64,000 bases of DNA from IMG/VR virus record IMGVR_UViG_3300014613_000020, positions 1 to 64,000 of that record. One strand, given 5' to 3'. Made by a program: the position numbers and the translations under genes. The notes under the pieces were generated by a model, which did no database searches, was not told the DNA's origin, and was given only the letters and a program-made list of their open reading frames with translations. This document shows positions 23,355 to 27,936 of this stretch, piece by piece; the stretch's first letter is position 1; each line of letters opens with the position of its first letter. This DNA is from a virus.

Positions 23355-24440
23355 ATGATACCTTGGGAAGTCGACCCTGAACAGTTAGAGATGCTGGCAA
23401 AACTGGCGGACAGAGATGATTTATCGTGGACAGACGTAGCAGAGCAAATCAGCGAAGTCGGAACGGAACGGACGGCGGAGAGTTGCAGGAACAAGTGGAA
23501 GCGAATCAGGCTAGAACCTGACACTAAAGTATTAGTGGACGAAACGCCACCCGCCATAGCAGAATCGTTGCAGAACCCGGAAGTTGATTGGGACGAGTGG
23601 ATGTCACTTTTGCACAAAATGCAGGGTATGGTGCAAAAGGTTGAACCGATCTATACAGATGCCCACTCCAAGATAGATACAGACAGGCCGATTATCATTC
23701 AGTTCGTAGCGGACATGCACATAGGAAGTCGATGGGTCTGCTACCCAGAGTTTAACGAAGCGTTTAAGAGAGCACTTGATACACCCAGGCTATATTGGGG
23801 AATGCATGGAGACGAAGTGGAAGGATTTTCAACCTCATTCAGAGCAGCATTCCCCGTGCTGGATCAGCTCACAAAACCGCTAGTCCAACGTTCGTTAGCC
23901 AACAGAATGATAGCTATGTTAGCAGAAAAAGGTAAACTTCTCTATGGCTGTGCCAGCACCAGAGCCCACAATACGGGCATGGCCATAGGTGAAGACCTTT
24001 TGCAGAACGAGTACCAACGAAGGAACATCCCCTATTTTGTCGGCAAGGGCATTTGGACGTTGGACGTTGGCAGCGAACGATACGTGTTTATGGTTGGGCA
24101 TGAGTTGCCAGGGACCAGCATGTACAATCCAAACCACTCACAGATACGTGCTCTGTTGTGGGACTGCCCCGAAGCCGACTTTATCATAAGCGCACATAAG
24201 CATACCTATGCCTACCAGGAAATATCACATCATGAGCTAGCATACAGGGCGGGTGTGCATCCAATAAATAAGACACATCTAGTAGCAGTAGGAACGGCCA
24301 AAGATGGGCCGGACCCATATTCTATCAGTCGCTGGTCCCAAGGAAATTTTGTGTGGCCTCAGTTCTGCCTGTACCCTGACAGACATGAGATAAAACGAGT
24401 ATACGGATGGGACGATGTGTCCCACTATTTAGGAGAGTAA
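23355..24440 (+). CDS. calcineurin-like metallophosphoesterase with N-terminal Myb/HTH-like domain
   Basis: ADMHIG, HGD, AHKH motifs. Confidence 0.7.
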   Translation: MIPWEVDPEQLEMLAKLADRDDLSWTDVAEQISEVGTERTAESCRNKWKRIRLEPDTKVLVDETPPAIAESLQNPEVDWDEWMSLLHKMQGMVQKVEPIYTDAHSKIDTDRPIIIQFVADMHIGSRWVCYPEFNEAFKRALDTPRLYWGMHGDEVEGFSTSFRAAFPVLDQLTKPLVQRSLANRMIAMLAEKGKLLYGCASTRAHNTGMAIGEDLLQNEYQRRNIPYFVGKGIWTLDVGSERYVFMVGHELPGTSMYNPNHSQIRALLWDCPEADFIISAHKHTYAYQEISHHELAYRAGVHPINKTHLVAVGTAKDGPDPYSISRWSQGNFVWPQFCLYPDRHEIKRVYGWDDVSHYLGE

Positions 24441-24441
24441 A

Positions 24442-24783
24442 ATGGGAATAGAAGCTCAGATATTATCAATCATTACACACCCGCGGGTGCGTACCATAGC
24501 GGCATTGATACTGCTAGATGTGTTGTTGGGCGTTGCGGAGTCGCTGAAGAGTGGCAAGTTTGACTTTGGTGAGGTTGGCAGGTTCTACAGAAGCATGGTG
24601 CTGCCCTATCTCGTCGGGTACGTGGCACTCACGTTTCTCATTCCGATGCTAACGGGCGACCTGTTGGGTGAATTCCAAAGCACACTAAACGAAGGACTTG
24701 TGGTGATAGCGTGGTTGGCACTTATAGCGCCACTTGGCAAGAGTGTGTTGTCACACCTAAACGGACTGCTGTCAAACTCATAG
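24442..24783 (+). CDS. holin (3 TM, putative)
   Basis: ILLDVLLGVA..KSGKFD pattern, hydrophobic helices. Confidence 0.65.
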   Translation: MGIEAQILSIITHPRVRTIAALILLDVLLGVAESLKSGKFDFGEVGRFYRSMVLPYLVGYVALTFLIPMLTGDLLGEFQSTLNEGLVVIAWLALIAPLGKSVLSHLNGLLSNS

Positions 24784-24788
24784 CCTTC

Positions 24789-24843
24789 TTTACGCAGAAT
24801 TTACGCAAAAGCATTTGACTTTTGTGCCAAGACAGTGTATAAT
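24789..24843 (+). promoter_or_regulatory. sigma70 promoter with upstream TTTACG tandem box
   Basis: TTGACT(24815)-17-TATAAT(24838). Confidence 0.75.
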
Positions 24844-24923
24844 TGTTGGCACGTACGTATAGTAGGGAAACAGACAGGTGGGAATTTATACTATGGAGCC
24901 ATAACGGGGTGGGGGCCTGTCAC

Positions 24924-25004
24924 GGGGATGAAATGGGGTCGATTCAGTTGAGAGCCCAAAGCGGCTGGCTGAAGACGGTGGTTCAATTCCACCCATCTCC
25001 ACCA
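24924..25004 (+). ncRNA. minimal tmRNA-like RNA (tRNA-like domain only)
   Basis: GGGGATG/CATCTCC acceptor with G3.U, ACCA end, stemless D-loop ending TCGA, GAC before T-arm GGTGG-TTCAATT-CCACC. Confidence 0.75.
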
Positions 25005-25111
25005 TAAAAGGAGAATGTGTGATGCCAATGGATTCGATAATAATAGGTTTTCTGTTTGTGTGTTTTATGGCCTGCGTAGTGGTGGCATTCAGGCCGAAAC
25101 TATAGAAAGGA

Positions 25112-25336
25112 ATGGAACTAATGCCGTGGACTTTGTACATATGGGAAGATGTATTGTCTGATTATACTCCTGGCATGATTGTAGCTGTTGCCAGAAGCGT
25201 AGAAGAGGCCAGAGAGATTGCTGCAAAGAAAAGCACATATATTACCTGTGATATGGGATTGGGCTGTGAATCGCATCTAATTGGAGATTGGGAACCTGGC
25301 GTTCCCCAAATCTGGTACGTTTGGGGCGGAGGATAA
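25112..25336 (+). CDS. hypothetical protein
   Basis: ORF with AAGGA RBS. Confidence 0.5.
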   Translation: MELMPWTLYIWEDVLSDYTPGMIVAVARSVEEAREIAAKKSTYITCDMGLGCESHLIGDWEPGVPQIWYVWGGG

Positions 25337-25500
25337 GTGTGAAGTTGGCAATCAGGGGACTAGTAATAGGGTGCGAGGCCCGCAGATCGCCTTTGGCGGT
25401 TGTACCGCCAAGTTTCTATTCAGCGGGGAGGGTAGGTCTGATCCTCCTGCCCTCTCCGAATATACAGAAAGGACCAAAGGGATGATGGACATGGGATGAG

Positions 25501-25989
25501 ATGAACCAATTAGAAGATATACACTGGGTAGAAACATATGCAGACCTAGGTGCAGAGGCAATCGCCAAAATTCTTGGATGTCCTGTAAAAGATGCCAATG
25601 TAGCTATTCATAATACTATCATGTCTGTACGTGCTAAAACAGACATTGAGATGGAAATAATCAGAGATATTTTTCCAGAATGGAATGGTACATTATTAGC
25701 TATGTCTCTTGGCAGACACCGCAGGTCAATAGCTAAATGGGCCAAAGACATGAAGTTAGTCAAACAGAGTAGAACATCAAAAGGCTTTTGGGATATGTGG
25801 AGAACCTACGTCCAGGCCAACATTATCAATCTCTTACCACTTGCTTCACATATCGTTATTCGTCCAGGCGAGAAGAATCTAGAGTGTACACTGTGTACAC
25901 ATACAAGATGTGATTTTAGGCAAGTATTACCTTGTGAGAATTTGACACTATGGGATTTACAAACCAACAGTGAAAGGAACGAACAATGA
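25501..25989 (+). CDS. putative HTH/zinc-binding protein
   Basis: IAKILGC helix-turn-helix-like segment; CxxC near C-terminus. Confidence 0.45.
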   Translation: MNQLEDIHWVETYADLGAEAIAKILGCPVKDANVAIHNTIMSVRAKTDIEMEIIRDIFPEWNGTLLAMSLGRHRRSIAKWAKDMKLVKQSRTSKGFWDMWRTYVQANIINLLPLASHIVIRPGEKNLECTLCTHTRCDFRQVLPCENLTLWDLQTNSERNEQ

Positions 25990-26153
25990 ATGCTTTTGTA
26001 GCTGTTGTAAGTGTGGTATTTATTCTCCTTCAGGGCTTAGCATGGTTCATGGGTGATAGCAGACTAGTGATGAACATCTCATACGCCTGCGGTCCATGGA
26101 TCCTATTTACATTGACTCTGATAGTAGACGAGATGAAGAAGAAAAAGTAGCAC

Positions 26154-26182
26154 TTGACAAGAAGCGAGTTTTGTGGTATACT
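26154..26182 (+). promoter_or_regulatory. sigma70 promoter
   Basis: TTGACA-17-TATACT. Confidence 0.75.
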
Positions 26183-26215
26183 GTAGACAGTAGATGCGTG
26201 CTCTATAAATGGTGA

Positions 26216-26341
26216 TTCTCACGCCAATAGAACCCAACGCAAATACAAGCCCCTATTGGGTGTGAGCTCTTGGACGCTTTGCTGCGCGTTGGCAGCGATG
26301 AGAAAAAGGGTCACAAGGACTCACACCCAATGGGGTCTTTT
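26216..26341 (+). promoter_or_regulatory. structured leader RNA (long stem plus pseudoknot/alternative pairing), copy 1
   Basis: stem 26251-66/26320-35 followed by T-run; loop complementary to 26216-21 and 26234-40. Confidence 0.6.
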
Positions 26342-26390
26342 AGTCTGTAACTTTTGCACAAAAGGAGGGAATGAGAATGAAATAAGACCA

Positions 26391-26448
26391 TGTGTAGTGC
26401 TGTCAAGTGTTGTACTGTGGGGTCATGTGCGATAAATTAAGGTAAAAC
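26391..26448 (+). repeat. pentamer-phased unit 1 (DGY-NN x8-9 plus tail)
   Basis: tgtgt agtgc tgtca agtgt tgtac tgtgg ggtca tgtgc gataa attaaggtaa. Confidence 0.8.
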
Positions 26449-26472
26449 TCAATCAATGAAAGGAATGAAGAA

Positions 26473-27072
26473 ATGCCAGAAATTGCGGATGTCATAGTCA
26501 GTGGATTGATTTTCAAGAGTGTTACAATCCCAATAGTTAGCATAAGTGGATCGTCAATGATACAGAACAAAATGAGTGATAAAACAAAGGAGAGGATGCG
26601 TGGGAAGCAAACCGGGCAACCAAATTCCGGTCGACAACCAAAGGATATAGAGGCGCTCTATCTTGGTTCTTTGCACCCAAAGAATCCTGTGACAGGGAAT
26701 TATACCTTTCCTGGGTGGGGGTTCCAAAAGGCCATTACTGAGGCACCTAGATTCGACGACAACTTAAAAATGAATGCCATGCGGCAGTCAATCACTGTCG
26801 ATAGTGAGTACATTGACATTATTGGTGAACCACAAATGAGAGAAGACCTAGTGAAAATTGGAAGGGGGTCAGCCGATCTAGCCTATCGTGGTGAGTTTCT
26901 TAAGTGGTCTGCCGTTCTCCCCATCACCTACAATTCAGCAGCCATTAGTTTGGAACAGCTCGTTGGCCTTGTAAACATTGCTGGATGGTGTATTGGAGTA
27001 GGATCGTGGCGGCCTGGCAGTTCAGCGGGTGGCATGCATGGAAAATTTAGAATTGCAAGAGAGGGTGAGTAG
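26473..27072 (+). CDS. RAMP/Cas7-like protein (putative RNA-guided effector subunit)
   Basis: C-terminal Gly-rich loop GWCIGVGSWRPGSSAGGMHGKF; FPGWGFQKAI resembles the RAMP IPxxxxKG motif. Confidence 0.6.
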   Translation: MPEIADVIVSGLIFKSVTIPIVSISGSSMIQNKMSDKTKERMRGKQTGQPNSGRQPKDIEALYLGSLHPKNPVTGNYTFPGWGFQKAITEAPRFDDNLKMNAMRQSITVDSEYIDIIGEPQMREDLVKIGRGSADLAYRGEFLKWSAVLPITYNSAAISLEQLVGLVNIAGWCIGVGSWRPGSSAGGMHGKFRIAREGE

Positions 27073-27876: not shown

Positions 27877-27936
27877 GAACTCTGCCACTCAATCAGGGAG
27901 TGTGAGACAAGCAGGTTCGAGTCCTGCCAGGGTTCA
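27877..27936 (+). ncRNA. tRNA-like element lacking anticodon arm
   Basis: GAACTCTG/CAGGGTTC 8-bp stem, CACTC/GAGTG hairpin, T-arm GCAGG-TTCGAGT-CCTGC. Confidence 0.65.

Follow-up and report, generated by a model that had tools for sequence, protein, structure and literature searches.

The question raised by the locus

Trans-translation serves bacteria as the principal means of ribosome rescue and protein tagging and is a target of antibiotics. A stretch of 81 nt at positions 24924-25004 of the window, by which we mean the whole 64,000 nt of viral DNA analysed here (positions 1 to 64,000 of the IMG/VR record IMGVR_UViG_3300014613_000020), had been proposed from the letters alone to be a tmRNA reduced to its tRNA-like domain (TLD), acting either as a decoy for SmpB and AlaRS or as a tag-less rescue RNA. 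The locus thus raises the question whether this phage carries a genuine gene for such a mini-tmRNA, how widely the design is distributed among phages, and whether such RNAs prevent the rescue of ribosomes or carry it out themselves; the last point and the unpublished breadth of the family are what make the locus of interest.

Identification of the mini-tmRNA gene

Of the two programs that had been suggested as a check, Infernal passed the locus with the Rfam tmRNA model, while ARAGORN called neither a tRNA nor a tmRNA at 24924-25004; its only calls in the window were tRNA-Tyr and tRNA-His. In the Rfam cmscan, tmRNA (RF00023) matched 24924-25004 with 51.4 bits, compared to a gathering score of 47, and with E-values of 2.5e-17 in the window and 9.1e-21 in the whole virus record of 98,979 bp. 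This match to tmRNA is far beyond chance. The alignment spans model positions 1-374 with both ends of the model aligned, and 304 central positions of the model are reduced to 13 nt. The gene lies on the plus strand, its 81 nt include the encoded ACCA, and its order is the standard one, so that the proposed absence of permutation was correct. A minimum free energy (MFE) fold of -30.4 kcal/mol reproduces the annotated structure exactly.

All structural elements listed in the sequence-only reading were located in their proposed places. The 5' strand of the acceptor stem, GGGGATG (24924-24930, +), is defined by sequence, Rfam and MFE fold and pairs with CATCTCC (24994-25000); G3 is position 24926 and U70 position 24998, and the G3.U70 wobble is thus G24926.T24998. 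On the 3' side (24994-25004, +), read from the sequence, the acceptor strand is followed by A73 at 25001 and the encoded CCA at 25002-25004. The analogue of the D-loop (24931-24942, +) is stemless, comprises 12 nt, AAATGGGGTCGA, and contains the conserved GG and UCGA, as seen in the sequence and in Rfam. It is followed by the P2 stub (24943-24973, +), which rests on the MFE fold and on covariation in the family and consists of a helix of 7 bp (TTCAGTT 24943-24949 / GGCTGAA 24967-24973), the internal loop GAG and a cap hairpin of 4 bp (AGCC 24953-24956 / GGCT 24963-24966) with the 6-nt loop CAAAGC. The GAC linker (24974-24976) and the T arm (GGTGG / TTCAATT / CCACC, 24977-24993), which together occupy 24974-24993 (+), are supported by sequence, Rfam and fold. 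The RNA therefore possesses the full set of TLD features, namely a 7-bp acceptor stem, G1-C72, G2-C71, G3.U70, A73, CCA, a T arm and a stemless D-loop with GG. An mRNA-like domain with resume codon, tag ORF and stop codon was not found, the 31 nt from UCGA to GAC being all helix or hairpin, and neither were the pseudoknots PK1-PK4 at 24924-25004, where the 13 nt take the place of the respective RF00023 positions.

A blastn search with the 81 nt at E-values up to 10 retrieved nothing but tRNA-Met genes, matched in their generic T-arm and acceptor halves. The family model R1 gave 73.7 bits for the window RNA, which is itself a member of the seed of this model, and detected a single copy in the complete genome. 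Taken together, Rfam score and fold confirm 24924-25004 as a real and well-formed predicted gene for a tmRNA reduced to its TLD.

Promoter, leader and genome context

The strong promoter that had been noted upstream was recovered as a sigma-70-type promoter, TTGACT-17-TATAAT, at 24815-24843 (+), with agreement at 11 of 12 consensus positions; it shares the rank of best match in 23500-26500 with one other site. The distance from the end of the promoter to G1 is 80 nt and the predicted transcription start lies at about 24850, which would give a leader of about 73 nt. The sequence at 24844-24923 (+) would accordingly belong to the 5' leader of a precursor, with a presumed RNase P cut at 24923/24924. 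Downstream, an element at 25008-25105 (+), read from the sequence as an RBS and a possible small ORF, is probably co-transcribed: the RBS AAGGAG (25008-25013) sits 4 nt past the CCA and is followed by small ORFs. With the promoter upstream and the RBS and small ORFs downstream, the RNA is therefore likely to be the first element of an operon of the host-polymerase type and to need excision from a precursor. A possible ORF of 27 codons starting at ATG 25022 is very hydrophobic and may encode a small membrane peptide; the ORF list holds only an alternative frame of 48 codons, 25015-25161, at the same place.

The virus record is complete according to CheckV. Since this complete genome encodes no SmpB, Pth, RF-1/ArfB domain, RtcB or CCA-adding enzyme, the RNA must rely on host factors. 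The tRNA-Tyr and tRNA-His genes of the phage (33745-33818 and 57038-57108) lack an encoded CCA, whereas the mini-tmRNA gene has one; by eye, the tRNA-His appears to bear an additional 5' G. A tyrosine integrase was not detected, as PF00589 had no match in the complete genome. A possible link between the RNA and UGA-interrupted genes of the phage, which had been put forward as speculative, was not borne out: TGA-bridged ORF pairs numbered 14, compared to 20 for TAG and 9 for TAA, and this lack of an excess gives no indication of genome-wide recoding of TGA.

Public sequencing runs containing DNA of the phage are groundwater DNA metagenomes only. In a co-occurring strain variant, promoter and leader have diverged (contig loose ends at 24805 and 24907) and the mini-tmRNA has been retained, with no difference within it in the variant contigs among the matches listed. 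A terminator-like hairpin at 25392-25413 is a hot spot of variation, and contigs of three groundwater runs end at 25400 and 25413 with differing inserted sequence. Neither blastn of the locus against INPHARED nor tblastn with the neighbouring protein of 704 aa revealed relatives, and the nearest match of PolA had less than 31% identity; a peptide pattern of the upstream exonuclease had no match in IMG/VR. Judged from these comparisons, the phage appears to be far from any cultured phage.

A family of phage mini-tmRNAs

The sequence-only reading had advised a search for similar short forms in phages and had named a unique deletion of a full-length ssrA as the alternative. The same design was found in 6 viral contigs using a strict pattern and in at least 119 using a looser one, which speaks against a unique deletion. 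The lengths of the RNAs range from 63 to 95 nt among the matches listed and, once the 5' register was corrected, all but one of the pattern matches had a perfect 7-bp acceptor stem. In an alignment of 68 sequences, 93.5% of the cells were paired, compared to 66% in shuffled sequences and at most 57% with the partners slid; over the family alignments, the respective values were 93.5-95.7% and 64-66% in shuffles. Pairing across the family reaches 100% in the T arm and 72-86% of the cells in the interior hairpin. Compensatory double changes were observed for all 7 of the 7 P2 pairs and for 3 of the 5 T-arm pairs. Alignment A3 shows no variation in GG and TCGA, yet both were preset by the search pattern.

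When applied to 596 Gb of prokaryote genomes, the same pattern gave 15 matches, mostly on short MAG contigs that may represent mis-binned phage DNA. The short form, found often in viral contigs and seldom in genomes of prokaryotes, is characteristic of phages. One of the matches (L232:6308-6370) lies on an 11.5-kb, archaeal-binned contig of a MAG labelled Candidatus Iainarchaeum archaeon, and Microvirga lenta has two pattern matches on large scaffolds. None of the 119 mini-tmRNA loci listed has flanking genes in common with the window. The clusters of neighbours are lineage-specific, with prohead protease, portal, capsid and terminase in some cases and DnaB-like and ERF proteins elsewhere, and the family neighbourhoods revealed no common gene, no conserved protein partner and no defence-related neighbour. 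Because the flanks differ from the window and the neighbourhoods are lineage-specific, the RNA seems to have spread over unrelated phages without a conserved protein partner.

Some members deviate from the main design. A smaller class, found in viral contigs L009, L017, L023, L028, L085, L107, L108 and L111, measures 63-67 nt to the discriminator (66-70 nt counting 3 flanking bases), and its P2 is a plain hairpin of 6-7 bp with a 4-nt loop, lacking the interior hairpin. A variant class (L129:7861-7949, L150:4077-4164 and L172:942-1031) is set apart by the acceptor GGGCGGC or GGGCGGT and by the greater length of both the D region (GCAGGTTGCCCCC.GTCGA) and the interior, and reaches only about 31 bits with R1; G3.U70 is kept in its members L129 and L150. 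In alignments A3 and A4, the interior loop follows a motif made up of an A-rich 5' bulge (AAAG or AAGA), CC(G), a loop of the C-N-N-G type, (C)GG and A(A), which is conserved from Mycobacterium phage DS6A through groundwater and marine contigs. The 5' internal loop opens with a stop triplet in 51 of the 119 members listed, compared to about 25 in shuffled contexts. We therefore rejected an mRNA domain consisting of a stop codon only as a general mechanism: the triplet is enriched, yet its presence in only these 51 members makes such a message unlikely.

Conservation of the alanine identity elements

The first scans had preset GGGG/CTCC in the acceptor; a second scan constrained UCGA, GAC and the T loop only and left the acceptor free. 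R1, whose detection threshold of 28 bits is far under typical scores, gave 62 matches in 100 loci from this acceptor-free scan, 55 of them with more than 50 bits, and none of these were members of the seed. In the 56 distinct sequences, G3.U70 was present in 53 of 55, G1-C72 in 54 of 55 and G2-C71 in 54 of 55, in an alignment fitted to R1, the seed of which had all three pairs invariant. By comparison, the fourth acceptor pair occurs in five pair types and pairs 5-7 covary in the acceptor-free set. A stricter filter, strict on the length of the D-loop, left 21 sequences, of which 20 have G3.U70 and 20 have A73; the lone exception in this subset resembles a class II tRNA. The Ala-identity elements recognised in the sequence-only reading, G3.U70 and A73, are thus not only present in the window RNA but kept across the family. 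These results suggest that the charging identity is under selection throughout the family and, since this is the identity set of AlaRS, that the RNAs of the family are charged.

Proposed competition with host tmRNA and alternative roles

By analogy with the DS6A RNA, we consider it probable that the locus is a functional phage gene whose charged product competes with the tmRNA of the host for SmpB and stalled ribosomes. In such a pathway, host RNase P would cut the 5' end of the precursor, the 3' end would be trimmed to the CCA and host AlaRS would charge the RNA with alanine. Host SmpB and EF-Tu would then bind the charged mini-tmRNA, which would vie with the full-length tmRNA of the host both for SmpB and for stalled ribosomes. 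As the mini-tmRNA has neither a resume codon nor a tag ORF, SsrA tagging would be lost in infection, amounting to a dominant-negative inhibition of trans-translation, and phage proteins whose mRNAs are cleaved or non-stop would escape tag-directed proteolysis. If this holds, a natural 80-nt competitor of trans-translation, present in many unrelated phage lineages, would provide a ready-made inhibitor or probe.

According to the passage of PMC11915505 that cites Mao et al. 2009, expression of the DS6A form in E. coli inhibits the endogenous tmRNA. The corresponding passage of PMC4131195 relates that a similar molecule is a strong inhibitor of tmRNA whether or not it can be charged, perhaps via titration of SmpB, and that the inhibition seen by Mao et al. 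2009 did not need charging with alanine. As far as these passages go, the inhibition of E. coli tmRNA by a DS6A-type RNA supports the competitor role by analogy. Since inhibition without charging is described there (PMC4131195), simple titration of SmpB would not explain the strict conservation of G3.U70. The conservation rather hints at an action on the ribosome, which would fit competition and rescue alike. As a counterpoint to the competitor role, a block of ribosome rescue could harm the phage as well, and the competitor model gives no part to the A-rich internal loop and the small hairpin, although both are conserved.

The main rival explanation, possible but in our view rather doubtful, is tag-less rescue, in which the charged mini-tmRNA enters the stalled ribosome with SmpB and EF-Tu and takes over the nascent chain on its alanine. 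For the release step, host ArfA/RF2, ArfB or drop-off plus Pth might tentatively be considered; ribosomes would be recycled and proteins left untagged. Mini-tmRNAs would then be alanine-charged ribosome agents that pass the complex on to release or hydrolysis factors of the host and so, conceivably, provide tag-free rescue for infection, and the A-rich loop with the CNNG-type hairpin would constitute a second module replacing the mRNA-like domain. This explanation merits consideration because G3.U70 and A73 are near-invariant beside freely covarying pairs, which points to selection for charging. It also agrees with the peptidyl transfer performed in vitro by a TLD-only tmRNA, as mentioned in the passage of PMC3895274 citing Shimizu and Ueda 2006, and with organellar tmRNAs without a CDS, which co-occur with SmpB and are thought to aid incomplete mRNAs (PMC11915505). 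The mini-tmRNA itself, however, offers no stop codon or ORF with which translation could end, and the stop triplet in the internal loop is confined to the 51 of 119 members listed; the phage genome lacks proteins with Pth or RF-1/ArfB domains, and the DS6A form acted as an inhibitor in E. coli in the account of PMC11915505 cited above.

An unlikely alternative is that the RNA has the shape of a tRNA and another job, either as decoy that diverts a factor of host defence or of RNA decay (e.g. RNase R via tmRNA-SmpB) or as an RNase P signal for cutting the operon mRNA ahead of the first RBS. Its position in the 5' UTR, 4 nt ahead of the RBS, would suit such a signal, as would the location of family members inside same-strand operons of other phages, between structural or replication genes, but recognition by RNase P needs none of the conserved features G3.U70, A73 and tmRNA-type D-loop. 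A perfect T-arm-like hairpin elsewhere in the phage (GCAGG TTCGAGT CCTGC at 27911-27927), which was picked up by R1, and a phage anti-CRISPR protein that uses tmRNA fragments (PMC11662646) may be quoted in favour of another job; the family neighbourhoods, with neither a conserved protein partner nor a defence-related neighbour, argue against it.

Phages that integrate into ssrA do carry ssrA fragments (PMC9004378; PMC4131195), and a non-functional remnant, i.e. a deleted ssrA copy or an attP-type fragment left by integration or excision, was therefore considered. We regard it as very improbable, given that both gene ends, a perfect fold and an own promoter are present, that the complete genome is without a tyrosine integrase and that many unrelated phages have the same short design, with compensatory changes in it. 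The specific case of an ssrA attP fragment, which would comprise the 3' part only and have an integrase adjacent, was ruled out by the presence of both ends and the lack of a PF00589 match. An odd decoding tRNA-Ala, for which acceptor stem, T arm and Ala identity elements might speak, is hardly conceivable for an RNA without D stem and 7-nt anticodon loop, whose central arm consists of 7 bp, a 3-nt bulge, 4 bp and a 6-nt loop, for which ARAGORN made no tRNA call and the tmRNA model, contrary to the ordinary tRNA considered beforehand, is the best in the Rfam tRNA clan, and whose family model R1 gives the real tRNA-His of the phage just 17 bits. Remnant, attP fragment and ordinary tRNA are thus essentially excluded, and the evidence and the literature leave the two functions named at the outset, decoy for SmpB and AlaRS or tag-less rescue.

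Comparison with known tmRNAs

One phage example of this kind has been published. Mycobacterium phage DS6A is listed as 'TLD only' by Hudson, Lau and Williams 2014 (PMC4131195), and its tmRNA has the tmRNA Website ID 11587 (PMC4131195; PMC11915505). The tmRNA database of 2025 contains 9 'standard, no CDS' sequences in total (PMC11915505). No paper on how widely the phage mini-tmRNA family extends emerged from our literature search. The window RNA belongs to a published, barely explored kind: its identification in the sequence-only reading was right, while its novelty was qualified by DS6A, a TLD-only phage tmRNA of the same structural family that had already been published.

In the DS6A genome (JN698994), a search with Rfam at the gathering threshold gave no tmRNA match. 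R1, which was built without DS6A, detected the RNA at JN698994:28478-28557, between gp33 and gp34, with 60.6 bits and an E-value of 8e-13. As the model finds the DS6A RNA, with the same interior hairpin, although DS6A is absent from its seed, the window RNA is assigned to the DS6A kind, and by this measure the two RNAs appear to be members of the same structural family. In the GenBank record of DS6A, the RNA (L121:28478-28557) is unannotated; the phage also encodes an RtcB-like RNA ligase, gp76. Both RNAs are phage-encoded, about 80 nt long, in standard order and without a CDS, and they share the 7-bp acceptor with G3.U70, the stemless D-loop with GG..UCGA, the 7-bp P2 stub, the T arm and an A-rich internal loop with a small hairpin (CCG/CGG in DS6A). 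Their carriers are unrelated, DS6A being an integrase-encoding siphovirus of M. tuberculosis and the other an uncultured 99-kb groundwater phage without an integrase. The RNAs differ in GC content (70% in DS6A, 56% in the window), in the junction of P2 and T arm (GCAC in DS6A, AGAC in the window RNA), in the 6-nt loop of the cap hairpin of the window RNA and in the Rfam gathering score, which the DS6A copy fails to reach and the window RNA exceeds. For annotation, this means that ARAGORN misses the window RNA and that the Rfam cut-off misses some members of the family, DS6A among them.

With SsrA (RF00023), the window RNA has in common the acceptor GGGG../..CUCC with G3.U70, A73-CCA, the D-loop with GG and UCGA, GAC and the T loop. 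In contrast to SsrA, it is phage-encoded, comprises 81 instead of about 350 nt and has no resume codon, tag ORF, stop codon or PK1-PK4. Organellar tmRNAs without a CDS have likewise kept the TLD and given up the tag reading frame; they include the 'permuted, no CDS' forms of jakobid and other mitochondria and two plastid sequences of about 65 bp (PMC11915505). Unlike the mitochondrial forms, which are permuted, consist of two pieces and work with a nucleus-encoded SmpB (PMC11915505), the window RNA has the standard order and would obtain SmpB from the host.

Engineered TLD-only fragments correspond to the window RNA in domain content. Complexes of the TLD with SmpB have been crystallised. Binding of SmpB and acceptance of the peptide on stalled ribosomes are reported for TLD-only constructs, in line with the peptidyl transfer in vitro by an engineered TLD-only tmRNA in the cited passage of PMC3895274 (Shimizu and Ueda 2006). 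Whereas the engineered fragments end in arbitrary capping loops, the A-rich loop and hairpin of the natural family are conserved, and the phage mini-tmRNAs represent a natural test of the minimal tmRNA needed on the ribosome.
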